Assembly: GCA_946221915.1 (NCBI GenBank)
Contig: CAMIKG010000006.1
Span: 28,075-92,074, forward strand
From: an uncultured Erwinia sp.
GTDB taxonomy: Bacteria; Pseudomonadota; Gammaproteobacteria; Enterobacterales; Enterobacteriaceae
Direction: 5' to 3'
DNA length: 64,000 bases
In this document: positions 372-42,675 of the stretch, piece after piece
Layout of the letters: every line of letters begins with the position of its first letter
Numbering within the stretch: the first letter of the stretch is position 1
Program-made: the position numbers and the translations under genes
Notes under the pieces: model-generated
Database searches by the model: none
Told to the model about the DNA's origin: nothing
Seen by the model: only the letters and a program-made list of their open reading frames with translations

Positions 372-512
372 AACGCCCGAGTCCAGCACTCGCCATCAAT
401 CCACTAAGCCTTTTGCCAATTTTCATCTTCACTTGCGCAAATTTGTTGTTTTACGAAAGAAGTATGCCGTCCCACTATGAATGACATTGGTGCATTAACA
501 AGGAATTGGCTG

Positions 513-1514
513 ATGTCATATCGACTGAGTTTGCTGGATAAATCCCCGATTGCGGACGGTGAAAGCGCCTCTGATGCGCTGCACCGCACCCTGTTCCTGG
601 CGCAACAGGCGGAAAAATGGGGTTACCACCGCTTCTGGCTGGCGGAACACCACAACACCGCGCAACTGGCGAGCCCTTCCCCGGAAGTGCTGATCGCCTG
701 GATTATTGCGCAAACGCGCCACATCCGCGTCGGCTCCGGCGGCGTCATGCTGCAGCACTACAGCCCGTATAAAGTGGCGGAAAACTTTAACCTGCTGGCA
801 GCGCTGGCGCCGGGTCGTATCGATCTCGGCGTCGGTAAAGCGCCGGGCGGTCTGCCGCTCTCCACCCGCGCGCTGCAACAGGGATTGCACCAGGATGAAA
901 AAGGCTCCTTCGCCGAACAGCTGACGCTGCTCGATGGCTGGCTGCAGTCCAGCAGCGGCGCAGTGGTGGACGGTGAATCGCTGTATGCCACGCCGTTACC
1001 GGCGCGTCCGGCAAACCGCTTCCTGCTGGGCGCCAGCGAAGAGAGCGCCAGACTGGCCGCCAGCCTCGACTGGCAGTTTGTCTTTGCTGCCCACATCAAT
1101 GGCGACCATAACCTCCTGCAGCAGGTATTAAACACCTACCACAGCGCAAGCGGTGGACAACGTGCGCTGGTGGCGGTGCAGGTGGTGGTGGCCGACTCGG
1201 TGGCGCAGGTCGATGAACTGGTCAGCGATCTGCGCCACTATCACGTCCGTGTCGCCGGTGGTCAGGGCGTCAATGTCGCCACGCTGGAGCAGGCGGAGCG
1301 CTACGTGCGCCAGGGCGGCTATCAAGATTATGTAATTGAACCGCGCGTACCGTCACTGCTGAAAGGCACCGCGGCGCAGGTTCATGCGCAACTGGAAGAG
1401 TGGCAGCAAAACTTTGGCATTGAGGAATTTGTCGTCGACACCCCGATTGCTGACGGGCAGCAACGACTGAGATCCCTTGAGCTACTGGCGACTCATCACT
1501 TAGAGACCGCCTGA
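513..1514 (+). CDS. LLM-class (luciferase-like) flavin-dependent oxidoreductase
   Basis: ORF 477..1514; ATG at 513 preceded by AAGGAA RBS. N-terminal MSYRLSLLDKSP...WGYHRFWLAEHHN is the typical luciferase-like monooxygenase signature. Confidence 0.8.
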   Translation: MSYRLSLLDKSPIADGESASDALHRTLFLAQQAEKWGYHRFWLAEHHNTAQLASPSPEVLIAWIIAQTRHIRVGSGGVMLQHYSPYKVAENFNLLAALAPGRIDLGVGKAPGGLPLSTRALQQGLHQDEKGSFAEQLTLLDGWLQSSSGAVVDGESLYATPLPARPANRFLLGASEESARLAASLDWQFVFAAHINGDHNLLQQVLNTYHSASGGQRALVAVQVVVADSVAQVDELVSDLRHYHVRVAGGQGVNVATLEQAERYVRQGGYQDYVIEPRVPSLLKGTAAQVHAQLEEWQQNFGIEEFVVDTPIADGQQRLRSLELLATHHLETA

Positions 1515-1533: not shown

Positions 1534-2691
1534 ATGAGCGAAAGCCTGGAAGCCCAACTCATCGCCTGGCGGCGCGAGCTGCACCAGTATCCTGAACTGT
1601 CGAACCGGGAGCAGGCCACCAGCGAACGTATTCGCGGCTGGCTCGACGCGGCGGGCATCCGCCGGGCGGATTATCCCATCGACACCGGCGTCATTGCCGA
1701 AATCGGCACCGGCGACAACCTGATCGCCCTGCGGGCGGATATTGATGCGCTACCGATCCATGAAGCGACCGGTCTGCCGTGGCGTTCACGCAATACCGGC
1801 GTGATGCATGCCTGCGGTCATGATATCCATACCAGCGTGATGCTCGGCGCGGCGCGACTGCTGAAAGCGCAGGAGGCGACGCTGCCGGGACGCGTGCGGT
1901 TGCTGTTCCAGCCCGGCGAAGAGAACTGTACCGGCGCGCGCCAGTTTATCAAAGCCGGCGCGCTGCAGGACGTACAGGCAATTTTTGGTATGCACAACGA
2001 ACCCGGCCTGCCGACGGGCGTGTTCGCCACCCGCCCGGGCGCCTTCTATGCCAATGCCGATCGCTTTGTCATTCGCGTGGAAGGCAAAGGCGCGCATGCC
2101 GCGCATCCGGAAGAGGGCGTCGATGCCATTCTGGTCGCCAGCCAGATAATCCAGGCGCTACAGGCGCTGACCAGCCGCAGCTTTAACACTCTCGACAGCC
2201 TGGTGCTCAGCATCACCCGTATCGACGCCGGAAAAACGTGGAATGTGTTACCGGCGGTGGCCGAATTTGGCGGTACCGCACGCACCCACGATATGCGCGT
2301 ACGCGAACAGCTGGAGGCGCGCGTACGGCAGGTGGTGGAAAACGTAGCGCAGGGACTGGGCGCTCGCGCTACCCTGAGCTGGCATGCGGGGCCACCGGTA
2401 CTGATCAACGACGAATACTGGGCCAGCTTTAGCGCCGATGTGGCGCACCAGAGCGGCTATCAGGTACAAACCGCCGATCTGCATCTCGGCGGTGAAGATT
2501 TTGCTATCTACCTGCAGCAACTGCCGGGCGCGTTTGTCTCGATTGGCAGCGCCAGCGAATATGGCCTGCACCATGCGGCGTTCAACCCCGATGAAGCGCT
2601 GATCGCGCCCGCGGCACACTACTTCGCCCGTCTTGCCCGCCAGGCACTGCTACAGCTGAAAGCGCGTGAGCGCACCGCGGTCGCCAGCTGA
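1534..2691 (+). CDS. M20D-family amidohydrolase (hippurate hydrolase/aminoacylase-like metallopeptidase)
   Basis: 385-aa ORF with an MHACGHD metal-binding motif and overall M20 amidohydrolase layout. 20 bp downstream of the LLM gene, so likely co-transcribed. Confidence 0.8.
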   Translation: MSESLEAQLIAWRRELHQYPELSNREQATSERIRGWLDAAGIRRADYPIDTGVIAEIGTGDNLIALRADIDALPIHEATGLPWRSRNTGVMHACGHDIHTSVMLGAARLLKAQEATLPGRVRLLFQPGEENCTGARQFIKAGALQDVQAIFGMHNEPGLPTGVFATRPGAFYANADRFVIRVEGKGAHAAHPEEGVDAILVASQIIQALQALTSRSFNTLDSLVLSITRIDAGKTWNVLPAVAEFGGTARTHDMRVREQLEARVRQVVENVAQGLGARATLSWHAGPPVLINDEYWASFSADVAHQSGYQVQTADLHLGGEDFAIYLQQLPGAFVSIGSASEYGLHHAAFNPDEALIAPAAHYFARLARQALLQLKARERTAVAS

Positions 2692-2732
2692 ACACGATTT
2701 ATTCTGTCCTCTCCGTCATATCAGGTCTATTC

Positions 2733-2762
2733 TGCGGTGATAAATAAAATATCACCGCAGGT
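2733..2762. promoter_or_regulatory. Perfect 11-bp inverted repeat CTGCGGTGATA-N8-TATCACCGCAG between the amidohydrolase and the SIR2-like gene (operator or weak terminator)
   Basis: Seen directly: ctgcggtgataaataaaatatcaccgcag ends 18 bp before the SIR2-like start codon. No strong T-run follows. Confidence 0.35.
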
Positions 2763-2779
2763 CGTTTACTGGAGAGAGC

Positions 2780-3574
2780 ATGAAACCCGAACTGAAGCGC
2801 GCTTACGATGCCGGTAAGCTGATTTTGTTTGCCGGCGCTGGCATTTCCCGCAACCTGGGCCTGCCGGAGTGGCATGAGCTGATCTCGCATCTGGCACATG
2901 AGCTGGGCTACGACCCGGAAGAGTTCAACTCCTACGGCACCCATCTGGCACTGGCGGAATATTACAAAAAGCGCACCGGTTCGCTCGGGCCACTACGCAG
3001 CTGGATGGATCGCGAATGGCACCGCCCCGATATCGATGTGCGCAGTTCTGAAATCCATACCCTGATCACCCAGGGCAATTTTTCCCGCATCTATACCACC
3101 AATTACGACCGCTGGCTGGAGATGGCCCATGAGGCGAATAATGTGCCTTACCGTAAAGTCTCCAGCGCCGCCCACCTGGTGTCATTAACCGAAAACGAGC
3201 GTCATATTATTAAACTGCACGGGGATTTCGATGATGATGCCTCGCTGGTGCTGGATGAAAGCAGCTATTTTGAACGCCTCAATTTTGACAGTCCGCTGGA
3301 TCTGAAACTCACTCATGACGTTATCGGCAACTCGGTGCTGTTTGTCGGTTACAGCATCAGCGACTTCAATATCCGCCTGCTGTTTTACCGCCTGACCAAA
3401 ATGTGGGGCAGCACCGGGCTGGCGTCCGCGCGGCCGAAATCCTACCTGTTCACCAACCGCTATAATCCGGTGGCAAAAGAGGTGCTGGGCCAGTGGGGAA
3501 TCGAGATGATCGTTTCCGACGAAGAAAACCCGCGCAAGGCGCTGGCGACGTTTCTGCAGGATTTGATTGGCTGA
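2780..3574 (+). CDS. Standalone SIR2-like domain protein (SIR2_2-type; candidate NAD+-consuming defence protein)
   Basis: 264-aa ORF with GGAGAG RBS. Has LILFAGAGIS (Rossmann GAGxS), TTNYDRWLE (N-Y-D motif) and KLHGDF (catalytic His), characteristic of the prokaryotic SIR2-like family. No fused partner domain. Confidence 0.65.
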   Translation: MKPELKRAYDAGKLILFAGAGISRNLGLPEWHELISHLAHELGYDPEEFNSYGTHLALAEYYKKRTGSLGPLRSWMDREWHRPDIDVRSSEIHTLITQGNFSRIYTTNYDRWLEMAHEANNVPYRKVSSAAHLVSLTENERHIIKLHGDFDDDASLVLDESSYFERLNFDSPLDLKLTHDVIGNSVLFVGYSISDFNIRLLFYRLTKMWGSTGLASARPKSYLFTNRYNPVAKEVLGQWGIEMIVSDEENPRKALATFLQDLIG

Positions 3575-3695
3575 TTGCTGAACGCGCGGTTCTCTGTGAC
3601 AGAACCTCGTCAGATAAGGTACTATCCTCGCCAAACTTTGTGTGGCGTGCTGGATTCGCTGTTTTATCGCGCCGCGATGTGAGGAATTGAGATTA

Positions 3696-5969
3696 ATGAG
3701 TGACTTGACGCAGGATGGTGCAGAGCGTCTTGCCCTGCATAAGTTTACGGAAAATGCGTACCTCAACTACTCCATGTACGTCATCATGGACAGGGCGCTT
3801 CCCTATATTGGCGATGGACTGAAGCCGGTTCAGCGCCGAATTGTCTATGCCATGTCGGAGCTGGGCCTCAACGCCAGCGCGAAATTCAAAAAATCCGCGC
3901 GTACCGTCGGTGACGTGCTGGGTAAATACCATCCGCACGGCGACAGCGCCTGCTATGAAGCGATGGTACTGATGGCGCAGCCGTTCTCCTACCGTTACCC
4001 GCTGGTGGATGGCCAGGGGAACTGGGGGGCGCCGGACGATCCTAAATCCTTCGCGGCGATGCGTTACACCGAATCACGCCTGTCGAAATATGCCGAAGTG
4101 CTGCTGGGTGAACTGGGGCAGGGCACGGTCGATTATGTGCCGAACTTTGACGGTACCATGCAGGAGCCGAAAATGCTGCCTGCGCGCCTGCCGAATATCC
4201 TGCTGAACGGCACCACCGGCATCGCGGTGGGTATGGCGACGGATATTCCGCCGCACAACCTGCGTGAAGTGGCGCAGGCGGCGATTACGCTGATCGATAA
4301 CCCGAAAACCTCGCTTGAGCAACTGCTGGATATCGTGCAGGGGCCGGATTTCCCGACCGAAGCCGAAATCATCACCCCGCGCGACGAGATCCGTAAGCTG
4401 TATCAAAACGGCCGTGGCTCTGTGCGTATGCGTGCGGTGTGGAAGAAAGAAGAAGGTGACGTGGTGATTACCGCGCTGCCGCATCAGGTTTCCGGCGCGC
4501 GCGTGCTGGAACAGATCGCCGCGCAGATGCGCAATAAAAAATTGCCGATGGTGGAGGATCTGCGTGATGAGTCCGATCACGAGAACCCGACGCGTCTGGT
4601 GATTGTGCCGCGTTCCAGTCGCGTGGATATGGAACAGGTGATGAACCACCTGTTTGCCACCACCGACCTGGAAAGAAGCTACCGCGTTAACCTGAATATG
4701 ATTGGCCTCGACAATCGTCCGGCGGTGAAGAACCTGCTGGAGATCCTCAGCGAGTGGCTGATCTTCCGTCGTGATACGGTACGTCGCCGTCTGAACTACC
4801 GGCTGGAAAAAGTCCTGAAACGCCTGCATATCCTTGAAGGTTTGCTGGTGGCGTTCCTCAATATCGATGAAGTGATCCATATCATCCGAACTGAGGACGA
4901 GCCGAAGCCGGTACTGATGTCACGTTTCGACATCAGCGAAACCCAGGCGGAAGCGATTCTGGAATTAAAACTGCGCCATCTCGCCAAACTGGAAGAGATG
5001 AAGATCCGCGGTGAGCAAGACGAACTGGCGAAAGAACGCGATCATCTGCAGGGCATTCTGGCGTCTGAACGCAAAATGAATAACCTGCTGAAAAAAGAGC
5101 TGCAGGCGGATAGCGACGCCTATGGCGACGATCGCCGTTCACCGCTGCGTGAACGCGAAGAAGCCAAAGCCATCAGCGAAAATGAGCTGGTGCCCTCTGA
5201 GCCAGTCACCATTGTGCTGTCGCAGTCCGGCTGGGTGCGCAGCGCCAAAGGCCATGATATTGATCCGACGGGCCTCAGCTATAAAGCCGGTGACAGCTAT
5301 CTGGCGGCGGCGCGCGGTAAGAGCAATCAGCCAGTGGTGTTTATCGACTCCACCGGGCGCAGCTATGCGCTTGACCCGAGCACGCTGCCATCGGCGCGCG
5401 GCCAGGGTGAACCGCTGACCGGTAAACTGACGCCGCCACCGGGTGCTGCTTTCGAGCAGGTGCTGATGGAAGCGGAAGAGCAGAAGCTGTTGATGGCATC
5501 TGATGCCGGTTACGGTTTTGTCTGTACCTTTAACGATCTGATTTCGCGCAACCGCGCCGGTAAGGCGCTGCTGTCGTTGCCGGAAAATGCCAAAGTCATG
5601 ACGCCTGCGGCAATTCACAGTGATGACGATATGCTGCTGGCGATCACCAGCGCGGGCCGGATGCTGATGTTCCCGGTGGGCGATCTGCCGCAGCTGTCGA
5701 AAGGTAAAGGGAATAAGATTATCTCCATCCCTTCGGCGCAGGCGGCATCGGGTGAAGATAAACTGGCCTGGCTGCTGCTGCTGCCACCGAACAGTGCGAT
5801 TACTCTGCACGTTGGCAAACGCAAGCTGACCTTGCGCGCGGAAGAGCTGCAGAAATTCCGTGCTGAGCGTGGACGCCGCGGTACTCTGCTGCCGCGCGGC
5901 CTGCAGCGGATTGATCGGGTAGATATCGACGCCCCGGCGCGTCCGGCTGTGGGCGACAGCGAAGAATAA
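3696..5969 (+). CDS. parC: DNA topoisomerase IV subunit A
   Basis: [36 protein letters not shown]... shows strong identity to E. coli ParC along the full length. ATG at 3696, in frame with ORF 3642..5969. Confidence 0.95.
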
Positions 5970-19935: not shown

Positions 19936-22026
19936 TTACGACTCTTTCGGGGGTTCGGCTCCGACATAGTCCTGCAACTCACCCACTTTTTCCGGCGGTA
20001 GTGGACGGCCCAGCAGATATCCCTGCAGCGAGTTACAGCCCAGATCAGTCAGAAACTCCTGCTGTTCATTGGTTTCCACCCCTTCAGCTACCACCTTCAG
20101 GTTCAGTGACTGCGCCAGCGCGACAATGGCGGAGACAATGGTGGCATCTTCTGTTTCTTTGCGCAGTTCATTGACAAAGGCCCGGTCAATTTTCAGCTCG
20201 CTGGCGGGTAAACGCTTCAGATACAGCAGGCTGGAGTAGCCGGTGCCGAAATCATCAATTGAGGCTTTTACGCCCAGTTCGGTGAGCTCGGTCAGAATGC
20301 GCACGCTCTCATCCGGATTACGCATCGCGGTAGTTTCCGTCACTTCCAGCGTCAGCAGTTCCGCCGGAATATGATGGGTGTTCAGCGCAGTGATCACCGT
20401 TTCCACCAGGTTACTCTGTTCAAATTGCAGAGCAGATAAGTTCACCGCCACTGACCAGTTGCTGTGCCCCTGCAGATGCCATTCCCGTAGCTGGCGGCAG
20501 GCTTCATTGATCACCCAGCTGCCGATATTAATGATCAGGCCGGTTTTTTCCGCCATCGGCAGGAAGACATCAGGGGTCAGCAGGCCGCGGCGCGGATGCT
20601 GCCAGCGCAGCAGCGCTTCAAAGCCGAGGATCGGGCCATGAGGCGCGCAATACTTCGGCTGATAAAACAGCCGCAGCTGGTCATGCTCCAGCGCCAGCCA
20701 GAGATCGTTAATCAGCTGCAGCTGATTCTGCGCAATGGTGTTCATCGATGGCTGGAAAAAGTTGTAGCCATTGCGCCCGTTATTTTTGGTGTGGTACATC
20801 GCCGCGTCGGCATTAAACAGCAGCTCACGCTCATCAGCGCCATCGCCCGGGAACACGGCGATGCCAATACTGAGTGACACAATTAACTCGTAGCGGGAGA
20901 TTTCAAAAGGCTGAGCGATGGCTTTCACCAGGGCATTCGCCACCGCAGCGGCGTCATTGGGCTCTTCTATTTCGATGAGCAGGACAAACTCATCCCCCCC
21001 CAGCCGTGCCAGCGTGTAGTGCCCTTCAATTTTGGCTGTCATCCGTTCGGTGACGGCAACCAGCAGGCTGTCGCCGATATGGTGACCAAACGCATCATTG
21101 ACCGCCTTAAAGCCATCGAGGTCCATAAACATCAGCGCAAACTGCGTGTTCTCGCGCGTGGCTTTATTGATGGCCTGGTCAAGACGGTCTTCCAGCAGAA
21201 TGCGATTAGGCAGGCGGGTCAGATTGTCATGCAGCGCCAGCTGCGCCAGTTCACGATTGGCTTCTGCCAGCGATGAAGCCAGCACTGAGGTGCGTGCCTG
21301 CAGGCGCGCATCCAGCATTGAGACCAGTAGGGTGATCCCCAGTATCGCCAGCGTCACCACCATCACCAGCACGGCCAGCCAGTTGCTGTCGACGCCCTCA
21401 GCGCCGAAGTGGTGACTGTGGCTGCCCACAGGGAAGTTGGCCGCCGCCATGCCGGTATAGTGCATACCCGCAATCGCGATACCCATAATCACCGCAGCAC
21501 CAATACGTAACCAGGTTTTGCGTTCAGCATCGTTGCGCAGCTTAAACGCCAGCCACAGCGCGGCGCCTGACGCCACCAGCGCAATCACCACTGAACAGCT
21601 AATCCAGCGCCAGTCCCAGACAATGCCAGGCGCAAAGATTAGTGCCGCCATGCCGGTGTAGTGCATTGCGACCACGCCGCTGCCCATCACAACCGCGCCA
21701 ACGCACAGGCGCATCATGGGCAGCTGACCTTTACAGACAATCCACAGCGCAAACACTGATGCTGCGATAGCAATCACCATCGATAAGGCAGTCAGCGGAG
21801 AGCTGTAACTCATCTGCATCGGCAGATTCATCGCCAGCATGCCGATAAAATGCATTGACCAGATGCCAATGCCCATGGCAAAGCCACCGCCAAATAACCA
21901 GACTACCGCTGCCTTTCCGCTGCTGCTGCTGACACGGCCAGCCATATCCAGTGCGGTATAGGAAGCAAGAATGGCAACAATAATCGAAACGATGACCATG
22001 AGATGATCGTACGAACTAACAAGCAT
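19936..22026 (-). CDS. MHYT-domain membrane sensor fused to GGDEF diguanylate cyclase and EAL phosphodiesterase domains
   Basis: Repeated MHYTGMAA motifs in the N-terminal TM region. GGDEF motif (RLGGDEFVLL) and EAL motif (FEALLRWQHP) are intact. ATG at 22026. Confidence 0.85.
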   Translation of the reverse strand: MLVSSYDHLMVIVSIIVAILASYTALDMAGRVSSSSGKAAVVWLFGGGFAMGIGIWSMHFIGMLAMNLPMQMSYSSPLTALSMVIAIAASVFALWIVCKGQLPMMRLCVGAVVMGSGVVAMHYTGMAALIFAPGIVWDWRWISCSVVIALVASGAALWLAFKLRNDAERKTWLRIGAAVIMGIAIAGMHYTGMAAANFPVGSHSHHFGAEGVDSNWLAVLVMVVTLAILGITLLVSMLDARLQARTSVLASSLAEANRELAQLALHDNLTRLPNRILLEDRLDQAINKATRENTQFALMFMDLDGFKAVNDAFGHHIGDSLLVAVTERMTAKIEGHYTLARLGGDEFVLLIEIEEPNDAAAVANALVKAIAQPFEISRYELIVSLSIGIAVFPGDGADERELLFNADAAMYHTKNNGRNGYNFFQPSMNTIAQNQLQLINDLWLALEHDQLRLFYQPKYCAPHGPILGFEALLRWQHPRRGLLTPDVFLPMAEKTGLIINIGSWVINEACRQLREWHLQGHSNWSVAVNLSALQFEQSNLVETVITALNTHHIPAELLTLEVTETTAMRNPDESVRILTELTELGVKASIDDFGTGYSSLLYLKRLPASELKIDRAFVNELRKETEDATIVSAIVALAQSLNLKVVAEGVETNEQQEFLTDLGCNSLQGYLLGRPLPPEKVGELQDYVGAEPPKES

Positions 22027-22071
22027 AACTGTTCTCAAGCGATGATGACCCGTTGGCCGGATTACTGGGTG

Positions 22072-22275
22072 TGTATACCCGTCATACTTCAAGCTGCAGA
22101 TGCGTTGGCTTTGTTACTCGTCCCTTCTCAGGGACTCGCCCCGTTGGGGCCGCCGCAAGCGGCGTTCAAATCTGCTTTGGCAGATTTGTCACTCACCCCG
22201 GTCACTTACTGGAGTAAGCTCCCGGGGATTCGCTGCGTCGCCGCCTTCCTGCAACTCGAATTATTTAGGGTATAG
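22072..22275. repeat. ERIC (enterobacterial repetitive intergenic consensus / IRU) element, long form with a central insertion
   Basis: Contains gtaagctcccggggattc (matches ERIC1R primer GTAAGCTCCTGGGGATTCAC) and cactcaccccggtcacttac (complement of ERIC2 AAGTAAGTGACTGGGGTGAGCG). Also the terminal tatacccgtcatacttcaagctgca…/…gcaactcgaattatttagggtata imperfect palindrome. Confidence 0.7.
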
Positions 22276-24676: not shown

Positions 24677-27121
24677 ATGAATCTTTTGCTACCTGCGCCG
24701 TTGCGCCCTTATCCGCTGGTGATCGGCGGCCTGTTTTGCATCCTGCTGCCACTGAGCGGCATTGCGGAAACCTTTGACAGTTTGCCGCCTCCCCCAGAGG
24801 TCAATATGGGGGGCGGCAACCAGCAATATATGCTGGCTCTGGTGGTGAACGGGCAGGATAACGGCACGATTGTGCCGGTCGAATTTCGTGACGGGCACTA
24901 CCTGGTGCGCGCAGGCGATCTGCAGCGTGCCGGTATCCCGCAGGATAAACTGACGGCGCCGCTGGTGGATGTGTCAGTATTGCCAGAGGTCAAAGCGGAG
25001 TACGACAGCCAGCGCCAGCGGTTATTGATCAGCGTGCCGCCCGGCTGGTTGCCAGAACAAACTTTCACCGGAGAAGACGGCTCACCGCGTTATCCCGGGC
25101 GCGCCAGTAACGGCGCGATGATTAACTATGATTTCTACGTCACGCGCACTGACGGTGTTGGCACACGCCTGTCGGCATGGAATGAGTTCCGCCTGTTTGG
25201 ATCTGCCGGCCAATTTGTCACCAATGGCACCGTTCAGCAGACGCTGGATGGTGAGCTGGAATATCTGGATAACGGCTATATCCGCTATGACACCTACTGG
25301 GCCGGGCAAAATGAGACGGATTCACTCAGCTGGCGCGTGGGTGACCTGGTGACGGATGCGCTGTCCTGGAGTAACAGCGTGCGCATCGGCGGTGTACAGT
25401 TTGGTCGCGATTTCTCTCTGCGTCCGGACTTAGTCACCTATCCGCTGCCGAGTTTTGCCGGGCAGGCCTCGGTGCCATCGACGGTGGATCTGTTTGTGAA
25501 TGGCTATCGCAGCAGCAGCCATCAGGTGCAGCCCGGCCCCTACTCGCTGACCAATATGCCGTTTGTGAATGGTGCAGGGAATGCCGTGATTGTCACTACC
25601 GACGCGGTCGGGCGGCAGGTGACCACTACATTACCGTTTTATGTCGCCAGTGACCTGCTGAAGTCCGGCCTGTCAGATTTTTCCATTGCTGCCGGCAGCA
25701 TTCGTGAAAATTACGGCATCAGCAATTTTGATTACGGTCCGGCTGTTGTCAGCGGCTCATATCGCTATGGTCTCACCGACTGGCTGACGCTGGAGAGCCA
25801 TGCTGAAGGCGCTGATTCGCTGGCGCTGGCGGGCGGCGGTGCGCAGATCAAAATCGGCCCGTTTGGTGTGATTAATGGCGCACTGGTGCAAAGCCAGATG
25901 GAGGGCGACACCGGCACCCAATACAACTGGGGTTATCAGTACAACACCAGCTGGTTCAGCCTTGGTACACAGCACACACAGCGCACCCGCGAGTTTGGCG
26001 ACCTGGCGTTGTATGGCAACCGCCGTGGTGTGGCCGCCGCTTACAACTACACCCTGAGTCGCCGCAGTTCGCAGTACAATGCCAGCGTCTCGCTGAATCA
26101 GTACGGCAGCCTCGGACTGGCGTTTATTGATATCACCAGTGGCGAAGGGGATCGTACCCGTTTATGGAACCTGTCGTGGAGCCGGAATCTGTGGGGCAAC
26201 AGCAGTATTTATATCGCCGCCAGTCGCGATCAGCAGCAGGGCGAGTGGACCGGGGCGATCTCGCTGGTGCTCCCCTTTGGTGAACGCTCCAGTGCCAGCA
26301 TGAGTGTGGAGCGTAACCAGCAGGGAGGAAATGCCCAGCGCGTCTGGCTGTCGCGCGGAATGCTGAGCGATGGGGGGATGTCGTGGGATGCCTCCTGGGC
26401 GAATCAGAGTCAGAGCGGCGATTATCGCCAGGCCAGCCTGAGCTGGCGCACGCAAAAAATGACTGCTTCTGGCGGGTTCTACGGCGATGGCGATAACGAC
26501 ACGACGTGGGGCGATTTGGCCGGTTCGCTGGTGGTAATGGATGGCAATGTATTTGCCGCGAATGCGGTAAATGATGCCTTTGTGCTGGTGAGGACGGGCT
26601 ATCCCAACATCAATGTCCGTTATGAAAATCAGTCGATGGGCAGAACTGACAGTGCGGGTTATCTGCTGGTGCCGGGCATCAGCTCTTATTACCCGGCGAA
26701 GTACGATATCGACACCATGGATTTGCCCGCCGATATGACCGCCTCGCGCGTTGAACAGCGCTTTGCCGTTAAACGGCAAAGTGGTTATCTGCTGGATTTC
26801 CCAATTGAGAAATTACGCGCCGCCAGTGTGATCCTGCACGATCAGAACGGCAATCCGCTGCCGGTCTCCACGCTGGTGAACCGGCCGGGCCAGGCCACCG
26901 AGTATGTGGGCTGGGATGGTATCGTCTGGATGGACGATCTGGATGAAGATAATCCGATTAGCGCCCAGACGCCTGATGGACGCAGCTGTGAAACGCGCTT
27001 AACCATCGCGGGCGGTCAGCCGCAGGCACTGAGCACCTATGGTCCCTTAACCTGCGCATTGCCGCCACGCCCGCAGGGCGCGTCTGCTGCGCCGCAGAGC
27101 AATTTGCCAGCAGGAAACTGA
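24677..27121 (+). CDS. Fimbrial outer-membrane usher (CsuD-like)
   Basis: 814-aa signal-peptide protein following the chaperone. Size and position are typical of a chaperone-usher usher. Confidence 0.82.
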   Translation: MNLLLPAPLRPYPLVIGGLFCILLPLSGIAETFDSLPPPPEVNMGGGNQQYMLALVVNGQDNGTIVPVEFRDGHYLVRAGDLQRAGIPQDKLTAPLVDVSVLPEVKAEYDSQRQRLLISVPPGWLPEQTFTGEDGSPRYPGRASNGAMINYDFYVTRTDGVGTRLSAWNEFRLFGSAGQFVTNGTVQQTLDGELEYLDNGYIRYDTYWAGQNETDSLSWRVGDLVTDALSWSNSVRIGGVQFGRDFSLRPDLVTYPLPSFAGQASVPSTVDLFVNGYRSSSHQVQPGPYSLTNMPFVNGAGNAVIVTTDAVGRQVTTTLPFYVASDLLKSGLSDFSIAAGSIRENYGISNFDYGPAVVSGSYRYGLTDWLTLESHAEGADSLALAGGGAQIKIGPFGVINGALVQSQMEGDTGTQYNWGYQYNTSWFSLGTQHTQRTREFGDLALYGNRRGVAAAYNYTLSRRSSQYNASVSLNQYGSLGLAFIDITSGEGDRTRLWNLSWSRNLWGNSSIYIAASRDQQQGEWTGAISLVLPFGERSSASMSVERNQQGGNAQRVWLSRGMLSDGGMSWDASWANQSQSGDYRQASLSWRTQKMTASGGFYGDGDNDTTWGDLAGSLVVMDGNVFAANAVNDAFVLVRTGYPNINVRYENQSMGRTDSAGYLLVPGISSYYPAKYDIDTMDLPADMTASRVEQRFAVKRQSGYLLDFPIEKLRAASVILHDQNGNPLPVSTLVNRPGQATEYVGWDGIVWMDDLDEDNPISAQTPDGRSCETRLTIAGGQPQALSTYGPLTCALPPRPQGASAAPQSNLPAGN

Positions 27122-28633: not shown

Positions 28634-30304
28634 ATGATTTATCCCCGTGTAAGGAAACACATATTCGGCCTGCTGGCGCTGACAGTTTCTCATGTTTACG
28701 CTGCCCCGATTACGCCTGCTGACCGCGAACAAACGCAACAGAACCAGCAGATGTTGCTACAGCAAAACCAGCAGCAGCGCGATGAACTGACGCGCAGTAT
28801 CAGCACCGACCGGCCAGCGATCGCGGCGCCACAGGCGGAAGATGAACGCTGTTTTGTGGTAAATGATATTCAGCTGGAAAATGCCTCATTATTATCTGCC
28901 ACCACCCGACAACGTCTGACGAAAGATTATCTGCATCAGTGTCTTGGTATCAGCAAAATAAATCAACTGGTCGCGGAAATCTCCGACTGGTATATCAGTC
29001 GCGGCTATGTCACCAGCCGGGCATTTCTGGTCGAACAGGATTTAAACTCCGGCGTATTACGTATTCCGGTGCTGGAAGGCAAACTGCAAAAAATCGTGAT
29101 GGATAATGCGCCGTCACGCCAGCTGTATATGGCCTTCCCTGGGCTGGAAGGTAAAGTGCTTAATCTGCGCGATATTGAACAGGGCATGGAGCAGATAAAC
29201 CGCGTGCGCAGCACGCCGGCGCAGATTGAAATTTTGCCCGGTGATAATCCTGGCTACTCAATTGTTAATCTCACCGCTAATCCTGAATTTCCGCTGAGCG
29301 TCTCGCTGGGGTTCGATAATAGCGGTCAGAAAAGCACTGGCGTCGGCCAGTTAAATGGTTCGCTGGTAGCAAATAACCCGCTGGGGCTGGCGGATAAATG
29401 GTTTATCAGCGGTGGCCGCAGCAGCGCGTTTTCCCACTCCCGTGATTCACGCAGTTTGCAGGCGGGCGTCAGCATTCCATGGGGCTACGGCTTGCTGGAT
29501 TACAGCTACAGCCGCAGCGACTATCGCAGCAGCTTCGATAATCAAGGCTTTCTCTGGTTGTCGCGCGGCGACAGCACTAATCATCGTCTGACTGGCAACT
29601 GGGTGGTGTTCCGCAATGGCGACATCAAGACCGGCCTGATGGCGGGTCTCAGCCACTATAACAGCCACAACTACCTTAATGATGCTCTGTTGCAGAGCAG
29701 CACCCGTAAGCTCAGCAGCCTGCAATTCGGCGTCACGCATACGCAGAAAGTGGCTGGCGGCGTCGCCACCTTTAACCCGACTTTCAGCCGCGGTATGGAC
29801 TGGTTTGATGCGGAAAGCGACGACGGCAAAAACGGCGAGCTGCCCAAAGCGCAGTTCCGCAAATGGAGCCTCAGCGCCAGTTTCCAGCGTCCATTACGTG
29901 ACGATTTGTGGTGGCTGAGCAGCCTGTATGGCCAGTGGTCGCCTGACCGCCTGTACGGTAGTGAACGTTTAACGCTGGGCGGCGACAGCTCCGTGCGTGG
30001 TTTTAAAGAGCAGTATCTCTCAGGCGATATCGGCGGCTATCTGCGTAACGAACTGAATTACACCCTGTTTACGCTGCCGGTTATCGGCCAGGTCAATGCC
30101 GTGCTGGCGCTGGACGGCGGCTGGCTGCAACAGGATCAGTACGACGAATTTGCTTCCGGCACCCTGTGGGGCGGCGCGCTGGGGCTGACCACCAGTAATC
30201 GTTACGTGGCGACGCAGTTAACCCTTGGCACGCCGCTGCAATACCCGGACTGGCTGGGACCGGATCATCTGACGGCTTATTACAGAATTTCACTCGTCTT
30301 CTGA
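28634..30304 (+). CDS. cdiB: Two-partner secretion outer-membrane transporter CdiB (TpsB/ShlB/FhaC family)
   Basis: Signal peptide, Q-rich linker ADREQTQQNQQMLLQQNQQQRDELTRSI and POTRA/beta-barrel regions nearly collinear with E. coli CdiB. Immediately upstream of the giant TpsA gene. Confidence 0.92.
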   Translation: MIYPRVRKHIFGLLALTVSHVYAAPITPADREQTQQNQQMLLQQNQQQRDELTRSISTDRPAIAAPQAEDERCFVVNDIQLENASLLSATTRQRLTKDYLHQCLGISKINQLVAEISDWYISRGYVTSRAFLVEQDLNSGVLRIPVLEGKLQKIVMDNAPSRQLYMAFPGLEGKVLNLRDIEQGMEQINRVRSTPAQIEILPGDNPGYSIVNLTANPEFPLSVSLGFDNSGQKSTGVGQLNGSLVANNPLGLADKWFISGGRSSAFSHSRDSRSLQAGVSIPWGYGLLDYSYSRSDYRSSFDNQGFLWLSRGDSTNHRLTGNWVVFRNGDIKTGLMAGLSHYNSHNYLNDALLQSSTRKLSSLQFGVTHTQKVAGGVATFNPTFSRGMDWFDAESDDGKNGELPKAQFRKWSLSASFQRPLRDDLWWLSSLYGQWSPDRLYGSERLTLGGDSSVRGFKEQYLSGDIGGYLRNELNYTLFTLPVIGQVNAVLALDGGWLQQDQYDEFASGTLWGGALGLTTSNRYVATQLTLGTPLQYPDWLGPDHLTAYYRISLVF

Positions 30305-30321
30305 CAGACAAGGCAAAGGTT

Positions 30322-33300
30322 ATGGACAATCGACTTCATCCGCTGCGCGCCTCGCAGCGCCTGCTGACTTATCTGGTGTGTGGCCTGATTGCCTGGCAGC
30401 CACTGCTGCCCGCCATCTCCGCCACCATTAATCCGGTGACCAGAGGGACAAATATGGATAAGGCCGCCAACGGCGTGCCAGTGATGAACATTGCCACGCC
30501 GAACGGCGCCGGGATTTCCCATAATCAGTTCAAAGACTACAACGTCGGCAAAGAGGGCCTCATCCTCAACAACGCCACCGGCCAGCTGAACAAGACCCAG
30601 CTCGGCGGCTATATCCAGAACAATACCAATCTCACCGCCGGACGCGAAGCGAAGGGCATCATCAACGAAGTGACCGGCGGCAGCCGCTCGCAGCTGCAGG
30701 GTTACACCGAAGTTGCCGGTAAAGCGGCTAACGTGATTGTCGCCAACCCGTACGGCATCACCTGCAGCGGCTGCGGCTTTATCAACACGCCGAACGCCAC
30801 GCTGACCACCGGCAAGCCGGTGTTTGACGCCAGAGGCAACCTGCAGTCGCTGGATGTGTCAAAAGGCACCATCACCGTGGAAGGGCAGGGGCTGGACGCC
30901 AGCCAGAGCGATGCGCTGTCGATTATCTCGCGCGCGACCGAGGTGAACGCGGCGATTCATGCGAAGGATTTAAAAGTAGTCGCCGGGGCGAACCGCGTTG
31001 GCAGCGACGGCAGCGTGACGGCGATTGCCGGTGAGGGCGCAGCGCCGGTGGTGGCAGTGGATACCGGCGCGCTGGGCGGCATGTACGCCAACCGTATTCA
31101 CCTGGTGTCGGGCGAGAAGGGCGTCGGGGTCAACCTCGGCAACCTCAACGCGCGCCAGGGCGATATCACGCTGGATGCCAGCGGCAAACTGGTGCTGAAC
31201 AACAGCCTGAGCAGCGGGGCGCTGACGGCGAAGGCGGAAAGCGTCGAACTCGGTGGCGACAACAAGGCCACCGGTGCGGCAACGGTGACGGCGCAGAACG
31301 GCATTACGCTGAATAACGGTGCGCTGGTGAGTGATAAAACGGTGGCGCTGGACGGCGGTGAAAGCGTGCAGCTGAGCGGTGCGAAAGTCGCGGCCGGGGG
31401 CGATATCCGCCTGTCGGGCTCTGAACTGGCGCTGGACAACGCCAGCACGGTGAATGCGGCGGGCAATATCAGCCTGACGGCGCAGAACGGCATCACGCAG
31501 AACGGCGGCTCGCTGGTGAGTGATAAAACGGTGGCGCTTGACGGAGGCTCGCGCGTGCAGCTGAAGGGCACGAAAGTGACCGCCGGGGAAGACGTACGCC
31601 TGACGGGAACGGCGCTGACGCTGGATAACACCAGCACGGCGGATGCGGCGGGCAATATCAGCCTGACGGCGCAGGACAGTGCGGCAGGCGCCTCCGGGCT
31701 GAAGACGCAAACGGCAGGGACGACCACGCAGGGCGAAGCGACTGGCGTCAGCGTGCTGGATAACGCCGGGCAGCTGACGGCGGGAAAAGCCCTCAGCCTG
31801 CAGGCGGATGCGGTCAGCAACCGCGGCACGCTGGCGGCGAAGGGCCGCCTGGACGCGGAAAGTAAAAGCGTTGATAACCTCGGCACGGTGCAGGGCAGCG
31901 GCGTCACGCTGAACGCGGATGCACTGCGTAACAGCGGCACCCTGCAGAGCGCAGGGGCGCTGGCGCTCTCCGGCAGCACGCTGGAGCAGAGCGGCACGCT
32001 CGGCGCGACCGGCGACGCGGTGCTGGACTTTGGCGACAGGATTAACAACGCGCAGGGCGGCAGCATCCTCGCGGACGGCACGCTGAGCGTCACCAGCGGA
32101 GAACTGGTGCAGGACGGCACGCTCTCGGGGCGTCAGGGGCTTACCGCTGACAGCAACAGCCTGAGCAGCGCGCAGGGCGCGCAGACCCGCAGTCTGGGCG
32201 ACGTGACGCTGAAGGTGCGTGACAAAACCGATATCCTGGGCGACGTGAACGCGGGCGGCACGCTGGCACTGAACAGCGGCAGCCTGCGCACCGGCTCCGG
32301 CGCGCAGCTGCAGGGGCAGAACGTCAGCCTGACGGCAGGCAGCGCCGAGCTGAAGGGCACCCAGGCGGCGCAGAAAAAGCTGGACGTCACGGCGCAGACG
32401 CTGGCGCACGGTGGCAAAAGCAGCGCGGACAGCATCATCCTTAACGCCAGCGGAACGCTGAACAACAGCGGCTCGCTGGTGGCAGATACGGCACTGCAGG
32501 CGACGGCTGCGGAACTGACGAACAGCGGCACGGGCAGCGCGGGCGACATCATCCTCAAATCCACAGGCACGCTGAACAACAGCGGTGCGCTGGCGGCGAA
32601 AACCCGCCTGCAGGCAACGGCGGGAGCGCTGAATAACAGCGGCACGCTCTCTGCATCGCTGCTGGGCCTGGAAAGCAGCGCCATCACCAACGGCGGGCTG
32701 CTGCAGGGCACGCAGTCGCTGAGCCTGCTCAGCCAGAGCCTCGATAACCAGAAATCCGGCAGCATTGCCACCGCGGGCGACCTGGCGCTCGACTTGGCCG
32801 ACTTCACCAACAGCGGCCTGCTGAGCAGCGGCCGTGCGCTCAGCCTCAGCGGCGAACGCCTGACTAACTCCGGCGAAATCAACGCCGCGTCACTCACCTC
32901 AGATAGCGTCACCCTGAACAACCTCGCGGGCGGCAGACTGCTGGCGACGGGCGCGATGCAGCTGACGAACGCGCAGCTGGATAATGCCGGGCAGATTGCG
33001 GCGGACGGGCTGGCTGTCAGCGGCGGAACGCTGACGAACAGCGGCGGTATCCAGGGCACGAACGGGCTGACCCTCAAAACCGACAGCCTGACCAACCGGA
33101 ACAACGGCGAACTGCTCACCGGCGGAACACTCACCCTGAACAGCGGTGAGCTGGCAAACGACGGCTTAGTGCAGGGCGATACTCTTGACGTCACAGCAGA
33201 CAACTGGCGCAACGGCGGCAACGCCCTGAGCGCGCAGGATGCGACGGTGAAGGTGAAAGGCACCCTCACCAACAGCGGACAAATCCTCGGCCAGCAGAAG

Positions 33301-36300
33301 CTGGACGTGAGCGCCGCTGATACCGACAACAGCGGTCTGGTGGTGGCAAAAGTGCTGGCGCTGCACGGCGACCTGGTCAACAGCGGTTTACTGCAGGGCG
33401 ACAGCAGCCTGGTGCTGGCTGGCACGGCGATTACCAACAACAGCGGCGGCCAGCTGCTGAGCGCCGGGAACACCCGCGTGACGGCTGGCACGCTGGACAA
33501 CCAGGGCGAACTGCAGGCGGATACGCTTGATGTCACGGTAAAAGACTGGAACAACAGCGGCAGCACCCGCGCCGCCAGCGGCCTGAGCGCAAAGCTGGCC
33601 GGTCAGCTGGAAAACAGCGGCACGCTGCGCAGCAGCCAGACGCTGGAACTGCAGGCCGCAGACATCCGCAACGGCGGCACGCTGGCCGCCGACCGCCTGA
33701 CGCTGCGCGCCCCGCAGCTCAGCAACAGCGGCACGCTGCAGGGCAGCAGCGCGCTGGTGCTCGATACGGATGCACTCTCCAACCTCAGCGGCGCGCAGCT
33801 GCTGAGCGGCAAGGGGCTGACCCTTAACCTCGACACGCTGAACAATGACGGCCTGCTGCAGGTCAGTGAGGCGCTGGACGTGCAGGCGCGCCGGTTCACC
33901 AATACCGGCAGCGTGCAGGCCGCGCAGCTGGGGCTGGATATCGCGGGCACGCTGTTAAACGGCGCGGCGGCAGCGCTGCTGGCAGAGCAGGACGCCACGG
34001 TGAAGGCGCAGACGCTGGACAACGGCGGCACGCTGGCGGCGAGCGCGCTGACCCTGAGCGGCGACACCCTGACGAACCGCGGCGCGGTGCAGGGCGACAA
34101 TGCCCTCTCCGCCACCTTCGGCCAGCTGACTAACGCGTCCGGCGGCACGCTGCTCAGCGGCGGTAATATGACGCTGAACGCTGCTGACGCCAGCAATGAC
34201 GGCAGCTGGCAGGCACAGCAGCTGGAACTCAACGCGGACAGCTTTACTAACACCGGCTCCGTAAATGGCATCGCGGCACTGACCGGCAGCGTCACTGGCC
34301 TGCTCGATAACCGCGGCGCCCTGAACAGCCAGGGCGCGGCTGGCCTGCAGGCGGGCAGCCTGCGCAACAGCGGCAAAATGCTGGCGGACAGCCTGACCCT
34401 GCAGGCGGACACGCTGCAGAACAGCGGCCTGTGGCAGGGCAGTAACCAGTTGAGCGCCACGGGCGACACGCTCACCACTGATGCAGGCAGCCGCACGCTG
34501 ACAAACGGTGCGCTCACGCTCACTGCCGGACAGCTGACCACGGACGGCACGCTGCAGGGGCAGCAGGCCACCATCAGCGCCGACGACTGGCGGCATCCCG
34601 GTTCCCTGCTCGGCAGCGGCAGCCTGCTGGCGCAGGTGGCGAACCAGCTGACCAGCAGCGGCGAACTGATGAGCCAGGGCGACACGCGGCTGAACGCCGC
34701 CACCCTGAACAACAGCGGCTCGCTGCTGGGCAGCGGCGACATCACCCTCAGCGGCGGCAGCCTGACCAACAGCGGCAGCGTGCAGGGCAAAACCCTGACG
34801 CTGACCCCGGCGCAGATAGTCAACCGCGGCAAACTTATCGGCATTGAGGCGCTGACCCTCGGCGCGCCTGCCGTGGCCGGGCGCATGCTGCTGGCGGCGG
34901 TGGCGCAGCCTGCGCGCGAACTGCGCAACGAACAGGGCGGCTCGCTGCTGACGCAGGGCGACCTGACGGTGAAAAGCGGCGGCGTCACCAATAACGGCAG
35001 CTGGCAGGCACAGAACATCCTGCTGAACGCCGACGCGCTGAACAACGGCGGGGCAATACAGAGCGCCGGCAATATGCAGCTGGTGCTGGGCAATACCCTG
35101 ACCTCTGCCGCAGGCAGCAAAATCAGCGCCGGCGGCACCGCGGCGCTGCAGGCGCTGGCGCTGACGAATAGCGGCGAGTGGATAGCGAAAAACCTGACGC
35201 TGAAAGCCGATACCCTGACCAGCAGCGGCAGCGTCAGCGGCGTCAGCGGGCTGACGCTCGACGTGAAAGGGCTGAACCAGCAGCAGGGCGGCAGCCTGCT
35301 GAGCGGCGGCGCGCTGACGCTGACCCTGCCGGAGCTGAATAACCAGGGCCGCATCCAGGCGGCGACCCTGCAGATTAACGGCAACACGCTGACCAACAGC
35401 GGCACGCTGCAGGGCGACAACGGCCTGACGCTGAACATGCGCGACCGCCTCACCAACAACGCCTCCGGCACGCTGCTGAGCCAGCAGGGGCTGACGCTCA
35501 CCGCGCCGGAGCTGGTGAACTATGGCCTGATTCAGGGCGGCACGACGTCCACGCTGACCGCCACCGGCAGCGCGCGCAACGAGGGCAGAATTCTTAACGG
35601 CGGCCAGCTGACGCTGACCACGCCGCAGCTGACCAACGGCGGCTGGCTGCAGGCCACCAGCCTGATACTGAATGCGGCGACGGCGGGCAACAGCGGCACG
35701 CTGCTGGCGCAGCAGCAGGGCACGCTGACCGGCAATACCCTGACCAATACCGGCACGGCGCAGGGCGGTAGCCTGGCGGTGAACTACCAGCAGCTCAGCA
35801 ACAGCGGCACCGTGCTGGGCGGTAACGCCCTGACCGTGACGGCGCAGCAGGTGAACCAGCAGGCGGCAGGGAAACTGTTCAGCGGCGGCAGCCTGGTGCT
35901 GAACAGCAACGGCTTCGACCAGCTCGGTCAGGTGGTGGCGCTGGGCGACGCGACGCTGAAACTGATTAACAGCCTGAACGTGCGCGGCACGCTGGCGGCG
36001 GGCGGAAAACTCACCGCCGGCAGCAACGGCGAGCTGGTGAACAACGGCGTGATGCAGGGCCAGGCGCTGAACATCAGCGCGGGCAGCGTGCTCACCAACA
36101 ACGGCAAACTCACCAGCGGCAGCGGCGACAGCACGCTGAGCGGCAGCCGCATCGCCATGAACAGCGCCGGTTCACTGCAGGGCGGCGGCAACGTCACCCT
36201 GACCAGCGGCAGCGACATCACCCTGAACGGCTTTACCGGCACCGCGGGCACCATGACGCTGAACGCGCCGGGCAGCATCGTTAACACCGCGCTGCTGTAT

Positions 36301-42300: not shown

Positions 42301-42675
42301 AAAACCACTGTCGCGTCGCCGAATCCTCCTTCGCCGGTGAATCAGCGGTATGAACAGGGTAAGGCTTTCGAAGATAAGTACTACGGTCAGTATTCCGCAG
42401 ATAAAGCTGTTTCTGCCCGTGAGCTGTCAGTGAAGACAGAGGGGGGAACCACTGTCAGGATTGATATGGTGGGTAAGGATGCTAATGGTAAATTAACCTG
42501 TGTCGAGTGTAAGAGCTCGGCTACTGCGCCACTGACAAAAAATCAGAAAGTAGGGTATCCTGAAATTGAAAAAAGTGGGGCAACGGTAATAGGTGCAGGC
42601 AGACCAGGTTTCGAGACAGGAACGAAAATTCCGCCCACGAAAGTAGAAATTGTCAGACCTGATACAGATAAATAG
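30322..42675 (+). CDS. cdiA: Contact-dependent growth inhibition toxin/exoprotein CdiA (4117 aa). Has a TPS domain, an expanded FHA-1 repeat region, a variable receptor-binding domain, YP and FHA-2 regions, a pretoxin with AENN motif, and a C-terminal toxin.
   Basis: N-terminal TPS domain …[56 protein letters not shown] is nearly identical to E. coli CdiA. There are more than 1700 aa of about 20-residue G/L/N/T repeats. Conserved blocks [19 protein letters not shown] and [20 protein letters not shown] are present. The pretoxin motif reads …[12 protein letters not shown]…. Confidence 0.93.
   Translation: [4117 protein letters not shown]
36490..37050 (+). other. CdiA class-variable receptor-binding domain segment
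   Basis: It begins right after the conserved TGHLLNQ(W/R)E and ends where conserved …[13 protein letters not shown]… resumes. The sequence between is unrelated to the EC93 (BamA-binding) receptor-binding domain. Confidence 0.55.
41728..42675 (+). other. CdiA C-terminal toxin region (after AENN). It has an N-terminal entry/translocation subdomain with two Cys pairs, and a C-terminal PD-(D/E)xK nuclease-like toxin.
   Basis: About 316 aa following AENN (nt 41716-41727). Motifs are CEGESC and CSSNPGEC. The last about 120 aa carry AFEDKYYGQ…[11 protein letters not shown]…[10 protein letters not shown] (E … hD … ExK). Confidence 0.6.

Follow-up and report, generated by a model that had tools for sequence, protein, structure and literature searches.

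A gene predicted to encode KomC, the SIR2-type NAD+ glycohydrolase (NADase) of the Kongming defense system, has been kept under strong purifying selection in an uncultured Erwinia sp. with neither of its Kongming partner genes, komA and komB, beside it. The gene lies between an M20-family amidohydrolase gene and parC in a stretch of 64,000 nucleotides (assembly GCA_946221915.1, contig CAMIKG010000006.1, positions 28,075 to 92,074 of the forward strand), hereafter the window. In the available text of the two reports on Kongming (Zeng et al., bioRxiv 10.1101/2024.12.20.629578; Li et al., 2026, PMC13454610), the adenosine deaminase KomA makes deoxyinosine triphosphate (dITP) jointly with a phage deoxynucleoside monophosphate (dNMP) kinase; dITP is bound by KomB, a HAM1 protein that is catalytically dead; and NAD+ is then hydrolyzed by a KomB-KomC filament. 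The same text reports that KomB and KomC always occur together (Zeng et al., 10.1101/2024.12.20.629578; Li et al., PMC13454610), that KomC by itself leaves epsilon-NAD uncleaved and that defense requires all three genes (Zeng et al., 10.1101/2024.12.20.629578), and that KomB mutants or a broken KomB-KomC interface abolish defense (Li et al., PMC13454610); relatives of Kongming that lack KomA are mentioned in general terms (Zeng et al., 10.1101/2024.12.20.629578). A KomC that is selectively kept without KomB is not described in the available text of either report, and a full-text search found no paper on a KomC or KomBC 'orphan'.

Identity of the SIR2 gene upstream of parC

The komC open reading frame (ORF) starts with ATG and encodes 264 amino acids (aa). 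An earlier note on this DNA had described a 264-aa SIR2_2-type ORF between an amidohydrolase gene and parC, and the ORF listing, the Pfam results, and the domains of the neighboring genes agree with this description; SIR2_2 (PF13289) matches residues 103-244 with E=5e-23 (82 bits vs a cut-off of 24.5). The motifs named in that note are all present (G19-A-G-I-S23, T107-N108-Y109-D110, and H147). A phmmer search of the Protein Data Bank (PDB) revealed a gapless alignment of residues 5-262 with residues 4-261 of KomC (8zsf_D, E=1.4e-97, 54% identity), the same 264-aa single-domain SIR2_2 protein from E. coli NCTC13216 (PDB 8zsf, 8zsg, 8zsh, and 9xvc). The length of 264 aa and the end-to-end alignment with a solved single-domain protein confirm that there is no partner domain, as had been claimed; a TIR, SLOG, HerA, pAgo, or Macro neighbor is absent as well. 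The suggestion that the gene may be part of an undescribed defense system was not borne out, given that it is clearly orthologous to komC, one of the three genes of Kongming, a system already published. The same 264-aa architecture is found in 1,953 homologues, and the window KomC is 66-73% identical to KomCs encoded within komABC operons.

Residue numbers in the window protein equal those of the reference plus one. The catalytic residues N108, D110, and H147, as well as D195, are present and are invariant in the alignment of KomC sequences; D195 corresponds to Asp194 of KomC, which the available text of Li et al. (PMC13454610) describes as conserved in SIR2 proteins that are immune NADases and not in deacetylases. 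The KomC-KomC contacts of the filament are conserved (R73, D77, R78, H81, and loop1 D149-F-D-D-D153), and the equivalent of K67, a position that is variable across the family, is S68. Among the positions that contact KomB, D45 and S246 are kept, and E47, D247, and E249 are conservative acidic replacements. Compared to E. coli KomC, some intra-tetramer salt-bridge residues differ (E56/Q231 to A57/A232; R177 to T178), as they do in most of the subfamily. Taken together, all of the sequence-level defining features examined are present, and the window gene is, as judged from these features, one that encodes a KomC-family protein.

Other SIR2 proteins matched less well. The earlier note had recommended PF13289 and PADLOC as checks; the former was significant, whereas PADLOC-DB 2023 returned only ThsA- and Dsr-type SIR2 matches, missing the KomC identity because it predates Kongming. 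The best PADLOC match, ThsA of Thoeris (E=1.7e-27), shares the SIR2_2 NADase fold and the catalytic motifs; however, no more than profile positions 15-213 of 478 are matched, and the window protein ends at residue 264, without the C-terminal SLOG/STALD domain. The ThsA and DSR2 structures were matched over the SIR2 part only (E=1e-13 to 1e-17), far more weakly than KomC. The NCBIfam models Dsr1 and Dsr2 scored 28-32 bits against a cut-off of 1400, and the large C-terminal sensor domain of DSR1 and DSR2 (proteins of ~1,000-1,200 aa) is absent from the 264-aa window protein. Unlike SIR2-HerA and SIR2-pAgo, komC of the window has no HerA or pAgo partner, its neighbors being M20 and ParC. Unlike the sirtuin deacylases (CobB/Sir2), the protein has no PF02146 match (PF13289 is the only match at E<=0.1) and retains the D195 of immune NADases.

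Loss of komB and constraint on the remaining komC

In the canonical Kongming operon, the komB stop codon overlaps the komC start codon, whereas the window komC has neither komB nor komA. No komA or komB similarity was found anywhere in the 64-kb window by tblastn with KomA and KomB (E<10). With komB sequences of four Erwiniaceae loci as queries, neither tblastn nor blastn gave more than chance-level matches to a degraded komB in the leader or the flanks, and in local alignments the similarity to Pantoea komBC sets in only at the 'GCATG' that contains the komC start codon. The genomic setting differs as well: the canonical copies of Enterobacteriaceae share an integrase island with SIR2-HerA and BrxR, whereas the window copy is at a chromosomal housekeeping site, where it is adjoined by no integrase or defense gene and is flanked by a metabolic pair, a luciferase-like monooxygenase (LLM) gene and the M20 gene, and by parC-plsC-ftsP. 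These results indicate that, as a system, the window locus is not Kongming, since komA and komB are absent and the context is not a defense island.

The distribution of komC was examined in a genome scan, with one genome per species (80 komC loci), and in a metagenome scan (79 usable loci). komB was found upstream of komC in 78/80 and 76/79 of these loci, respectively, and an intact orphan in only 1/80 and 3/79. The sole intact orphan of the genome scan, that of Erwinia sp. V71, has the window layout (LLM, M20, komC, parC); the metagenome scan added one further window-type orphan (L105) and two distant ones. A second apparent orphan, that of Mixta mediterraneensis (L062 5039-6007), was rejected as a pseudogene in which an IS5-family insertion has replaced komB and the first ~12 codons of komC. 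Context look-ups yielded two further intact orphans on metagenome/Logan contigs, L008 (1921-2718) and L009 (6001-6795). Their chromosomal sites are unrelated: one orphan adjoins a Glycos_transf_3/QRPTase cluster, and the other is flanked by fumC-like and GMC-oxidoreductase genes; the KomB-contact changes in L008 and L009 are non-conservative (E247P with D249Q, and D249R). A 186-aa gene beside L008 was considered as a divergent komB and rejected, since its product has the length of KomB but an unrelated sequence.

The closest KomC relatives, at 85-90% identity, are those of komBC pairs in other Erwiniaceae (Pantoea LPP-1, Mixta, and Erwinia sp. PK3-005 and S63). In approximately 50 species of Pantoea, Mixta, and 'Erwinia', komC is 82-90% identical to the window gene, with komB directly upstream in all but one and komA in none. 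These pairs and the window locus both lack komA; however, the pairs retain komB and their own promoter region, both of which are missing from the window, and their komC is followed by yebG, not by parC. Pantoea KomB keeps the 'defensive HAM1' signature (N9, K12, E15, and H65), and so the Erwiniaceae komBC is a KomA-less relative of Kongming, of the sort that Zeng et al. (10.1101/2024.12.20.629578) mention. At greater distances, genome-scan loci at 64-71% identity are mostly full komABC operons, and homologues at 69-73% identity, from Enterobacteriaceae and other bacteria, lie in operons of A_deaminase, Ham1p_like, and SIR2_2 genes with overlapping stop and start codons. The Enterobacteriaceae loci retrieved have komC inside komABC operons, in integrase islands near smpB and not at parC. 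Window positions 2692-3695 have no DNA-level match in 5,426 complete E. coli genomes, which is consistent with the claim that E. coli has no equivalent gene upstream of parC. In a neighbor-joining tree, the window and V71 sequences are sister to the paired clade of Pantoea and Mixta, with L008 and L009 below and the komABC clades outside.

Most of the Pantoea/Mixta pairs reside on the LPP-1 megaplasmid, which has been described as a replicon that is domesticated and passed on vertically (PMC12612815). PLSDB contains 95 Pantoea plasmids with a komB-komC pair, and the two that were examined are large, non-mobilizable, and of the same replicon cluster, the LPP-1 type. Within Erwiniaceae, komBC also occurs at several other chromosomal sites, some of them beside toxin-antitoxin genes. 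Nearly all Pantoea carry a komB-komC pair that lacks komA, and such a pair also occurs in Mixta; its neighbors are metabolic rather than defense genes, and no source of a dITP-like signal is apparent; yebG, which has its own LexA box, is directly downstream in 44/51 Pantoea/Mixta loci. An SOS link was considered and rejected: the LexA box downstream of Pantoea komC (TACTGTATATAAACACAGTA) belongs to yebG, and none was found upstream of komB or of the window komC.

Comparison with Pantoea dispersa shows what the locus has lost. The gene order there is MsnO8-type LLM, amidohydrolase, LLM2, solute-binding protein (SBP), GNAT, permease, ATPase, SBP, EAL, komB, komC, and yebG. In the window, the LLM-amidohydrolase pair runs straight into komC, and therefore ~7 kb, including komB, is missing relative to P. 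dispersa. An 88-bp leader stands in place of komB and everything upstream of komB in the Pantoea-type locus, and searches of the fetched loci and of the rest of the window gave no homologue of this leader. On the other side, parC-upstream homology resumes 11 nt after the komC stop codon, with window positions 3585-3638 and 3666-3694 being 92-93% identical to the parC-upstream DNA of three further loci (L102, L103, and L104). In L102-L104, the M20-parC interval is occupied by a 5.8-kb operon on the opposite strand (two class-II aldolase genes, phosphotransferase system (PTS) EIIC/EIIB/EIIA, and a PRD regulator), and M20 is not preceded by an LLM gene. These loci, which lack komC, are those of the relatives that come closest in the M20 gene (84% identity), namely, a Winslowiella-like Erwiniaceae bacterium and Pantoea sp. 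B65. The M20-to-parC interval is a variable slot. A SymE-type toxin gene (109 aa; L098/L099 3720-4049) lies between a divergent M20 gene and LLM, ~0.4-0.7 kb to the left of window position 1, and SymE genes are also found near komBC in Erwinia sp. PK3-005-like contigs (L095 and L097).

The earlier note had held that an orthologue conserved in all relatives within a housekeeping context would speak against a defense role. The evidence on this point is divided. At the parC locus, komC is limited to a narrow lineage, the next relatives being without it, which rules out universal conservation in a housekeeping operon; across Erwiniaceae, on the other hand, komC and komBC relatives are inherited almost like core genes, and they lie among metabolic genes, not within defense islands.

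We then compared the rates of nonsynonymous (dN) and synonymous (dS) substitution in komC with those in its neighbors. The window is 100% identical to contigs of ENA ERZ1031287 and JGI 3300013182, and the comparison was made with Erwinia sp. V71 (Table 1). Within the species, komC differs from that of the second strain, L105, at 33 nucleotides, all of which (33/33) are synonymous, with no nonsynonymous change. Purifying selection on komC is strong, comparable to that on parC and ftsP, and no relaxation of it could be detected. Because the 88-bp junction is common to the window, V71, and L105, komB was lost before the three diverged; komC has been under housekeeping-grade constraint ever since, and its reading frame, start codon, and Shine-Dalgarno (SD) sequence are intact in every window-type copy. 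Tajima relative-rate tests gave no significant acceleration of the window KomC relative to KomB-paired KomCs, whereas the L008 and L009 orphans are accelerated (p ~0.001). Fifteen residues are private to the lineage of the window and V71, among them D132H and D249E, at positions that do not vary in any other sequence compared.

Table 1. Substitution rates between the window and Erwinia sp. V71
Protein	dN	dS	dN/dS
KomC	0.018	0.62	0.030
ParC	0.0076	0.35	0.022
FtsP	0.017	0.53	0.031
M20	0.027	0.72	0.038
PlsC	0.022	0.46	0.047
LLM	0.051	0.60	0.085

The komC leader and other features of the window

The LLM, M20, and komC genes form a same-strand run, and plsC and ftsP are the next genes downstream of parC (Table 2). 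The syntenic P. dispersa counterpart of the window LLM is annotated as 'MsnO8 family LLM class oxidoreductase'. No sigma-70-like promoter was called in the 88-bp leader, and the sole promoter-like site near komC, at 3596-3625, is within the parC upstream region. Because the leader contains no promoter-like site, read-through from LLM-M20 is proposed as the likeliest source of komC transcription.

Table 2. Features of the komC locus (positions are those of the window)
Feature	Position	Strand	Basis or remark
LLM monooxygenase (luciferase-like, MsnO8-type), first of the run LLM-M20-komC	477..1514	+	Pfam Bac_luciferase
M20-family amidohydrolase, 88 bp upstream of komC	1534..2691	+	Pfam Peptidase_M20 (E=3e-39), M20_dimer; P. 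dispersa synteny
Leader of 88 bp, M20 stop to komC start	2692..2779	+	no homologue in any fetched locus
CCUCUCC, predicted partner of the komC SD region (possible SD-sequestering stem)	2708..2714	+	folding
Perfect 11-bp inverted repeat, CTGCGGTGATA / TATCACCGCAG, 7-nt loop	2732..2760	+	leader hairpin, not a canonical terminator
GGAGAG, SD-like, 5' of the komC ATG	2771..2776	+	sequence inspection
komC orthologue	2780..3574 (stop codon included)	+	ORF listing; Pfam SIR2_2; full-length KomC 8zsf match
parC upstream region, right-hand edge of the komC segment	3585..3694	+	kept in relatives without komC
parC (topoisomerase IV subunit A), housekeeping right-hand neighbor	3696..5969	+	PF00521 DNA_topoisoIV

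The palindrome reported upstream of komC in the earlier note is real, and its 11-nt arms are 100% complementary; however, the arms are at 2732-2742 and 2750-2760, and the span of 2733..2762 given there is slightly off. The window has six perfect hairpin-type inverted repeats of at least 11 nt, this one included, and the palindrome is therefore not exceptional. It is intact in L105 and carries three uncompensated mismatches in V71. We considered it as a terminator and as a conserved operator and rejected both: there is no U-tract after the hairpin and a terminator scan made no call, and the repeat is degraded in V71. The arms (TATCACCGC) correspond to the consensus half-site of the phage lambda operators, here in an everted orientation with a 7-nt spacer, which is probably a coincidence. 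The palindrome is thus without demonstrable significance. The leader as a whole has a minimum free energy (MFE) of -29.2 kcal/mol, with z=-4.2 in the window and z=-1.4 in V71. In the predicted fold, CCUCUCC pairs with GGAGAGAG (~2771-2778), with the 11-bp hairpin nested within. This outer stem, which would sequester the SD sequence, is predicted in both the window and V71, and, since its sequence is invariant, it offers no covariation evidence.

Elsewhere in the window, positions 28634-42675 (+) hold a two-partner-secretion/contact-dependent-inhibition (TPS/CDI) locus that encodes a ShlB/FhaC-type transporter (556 aa) and a 4,117-aa TPS/hemagglutinin-repeat protein; in the latter, a PT-VENN motif at residues 3755-3805 precedes the C-terminal ~310 aa, which have no Pfam match and are presumably the toxin. 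A 920-aa Pro/Ser/Gln-rich protein without a Pfam domain at E<=1e-5 is encoded at 8376-11138 (-), downstream of ftsP; Erwinia sp. V71 (914 aa) and the other assemblies of the window organism have it at the same position. Two GGDEF-EAL proteins, one with MHYT and one with PAS, and a fimbrial usher (19936-22092 (-), 58270-60744 (+), and 24677-27121 (+)) are ordinary accessory content of an Erwiniaceae chromosome.

Explanations for a KomC without KomB

Given that E. coli KomC is inactive without KomB, activation of the window KomC would have to come from something that is not encoded beside komC. We tentatively favor, at a little less than an even chance, a reading of komC as a conserved latent NADase effector whose activator, either a KomB-like sensor in trans or a new trigger, is not encoded in cis. 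On this reading, the gene, an orthologue of the Kongming SIR2-type NADase gene, has lost its obligatory cis partner, komB, in the Erwiniaceae lineage of the window, komA being likewise absent, as throughout the Erwiniaceae version of the module. KomC would still be made, probably via LLM-M20 read-through, and may still assemble through its KomC-KomC contacts; once activated, it would kill or arrest the cell by depleting NAD+. The activator would most likely be a KomB-like sensor encoded at another site in the genome or on a mobile element, or alternatively a different trigger that was acquired after the loss of komB. The earlier note's proposal of an anti-phage NAD+-depletion effector is supported in part, in that relatives of the protein are such effectors, whereas single-gene abortive infection is disfavored by the published biochemistry of KomC.

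Several observations weigh against a latent effector that is activated in trans. Erwinia sp. V71 was not named among the best 120 matches of the KomB search, in which cluster members are hidden, and 3/3 of the Erwiniaceae-type KomB contexts inspected were komBC pairs with a komC of their own; this outcome is weak evidence against a KomB partner in trans. Two of the five published KomB-contact positions (E247D and D249E) have changed to residues that are absent from 50 paired Erwiniaceae KomCs. The enrichment of changes at KomB contacts (Fisher p=0.03) comes from a small sample and is only suggestive, and the changes could equally mean that the interface is no longer used. Finally, the locus is not a defense island, being surrounded by sulfur or amino-acid-type metabolic genes and parC.

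A broader alternative, which we consider rather doubtful, is that the orphan KomC is now independent of KomB, having evolved from a two-component sensor-effector filament into a single-gene SIR2 effector or an NAD-consuming enzyme. Such a protein might respond to another cue, or a host protein, for example, the housekeeping HAM1 enzyme RdgB, might have been recruited as its activator.

One form of KomB independence is a self-sufficient abortive-infection NADase, in which KomC would sense and activate alone after the loss of komB, for example, through remodeling of its own filament. The strong purifying selection without a cis partner, the intact catalytic and filament residues, and the 15 lineage-specific substitutions, which include D132H, D249E, and changes in the acidic patch that contacts KomB, are all consistent with this explanation, as are the intact orphans L008 and L009 with their non-conservative contact changes (P/Q and R). 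However, according to the available text of the Kongming reports, E. coli KomC shows no activity on its own in vitro, and defense is lost in KomB mutants; the acidic-patch changes of the window protein are conservative (E to D, D to E); the evolutionary burst expected of a change of mechanism is not seen, the Tajima test being non-significant; and intact orphans are rare in both scans. We regard self-sufficiency as unlikely.

Repurposing for a non-defense role is, in our estimate, unlikely to the same degree. KomC would here serve a NAD-consuming regulatory or stress function, or ADP-ribosylation or deacylation, which might be tied to the LLM-M20 operon or be inherited from a non-immune role of Erwiniaceae komBC. 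In its favor, komBC in Erwiniaceae looks like a vertically inherited, near-core pair, with a gene tree compatible with the family tree and, in LPP-1, a domesticated and vertically inherited carrier (PMC12612815); the neighbors of the module are metabolic genes and yebG with its SOS box, and no defense genes; komA is absent, and therefore no dedicated source of dITP is encoded; and the dN/dS of komC matches that of housekeeping genes. By contrast, the D195 of immune NADases is retained, Pantoea KomB keeps its N9, K12, E15, and H65 signature, komBC occupies several Erwiniaceae loci, some beside toxin-antitoxin genes as is often the case for defense genes, and komC is absent from the nearest relatives at the parC locus.

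It is very improbable, and close to refuted by the selection data, that komC is a non-functional remnant of komBC left intact by chance after a recent deletion of komB: komB and the native komBC promoter region are indeed both gone, and the comparable orphan of M. mediterraneensis is a true pseudogene, but the junction shared by three diverged genomes means that the loss predates a dS of ~0.6, and the dN/dS of 0.03, the exclusively synonymous changes within the species, and the intact frame, start codon, and SD sequence of every copy all contradict it.

The window locus is a natural exception to the KomB-KomC sensor-effector pair, which the available text of Zeng et al. and Li et al. presents as inseparable. 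Either the sensor and the effector can be split across the genome and yet still work, or the KomC scaffold can work without KomB. If KomC is indeed KomB-independent, its filament scaffold is open to re-wiring toward new inputs, and the near-core, KomA-less komBC of Pantoea and Mixta might then sense endogenous deaminated purine nucleotides, beyond the products of phage kinases alone. With respect to annotation, 'standalone SIR2_2' calls need to be compared with KomC before they are proposed as new systems. The KomA-less komBC is quasi-core and vertically inherited in Pantoea (LPP-1) and Mixta, which brings the origin of the dITP-like signal into question.

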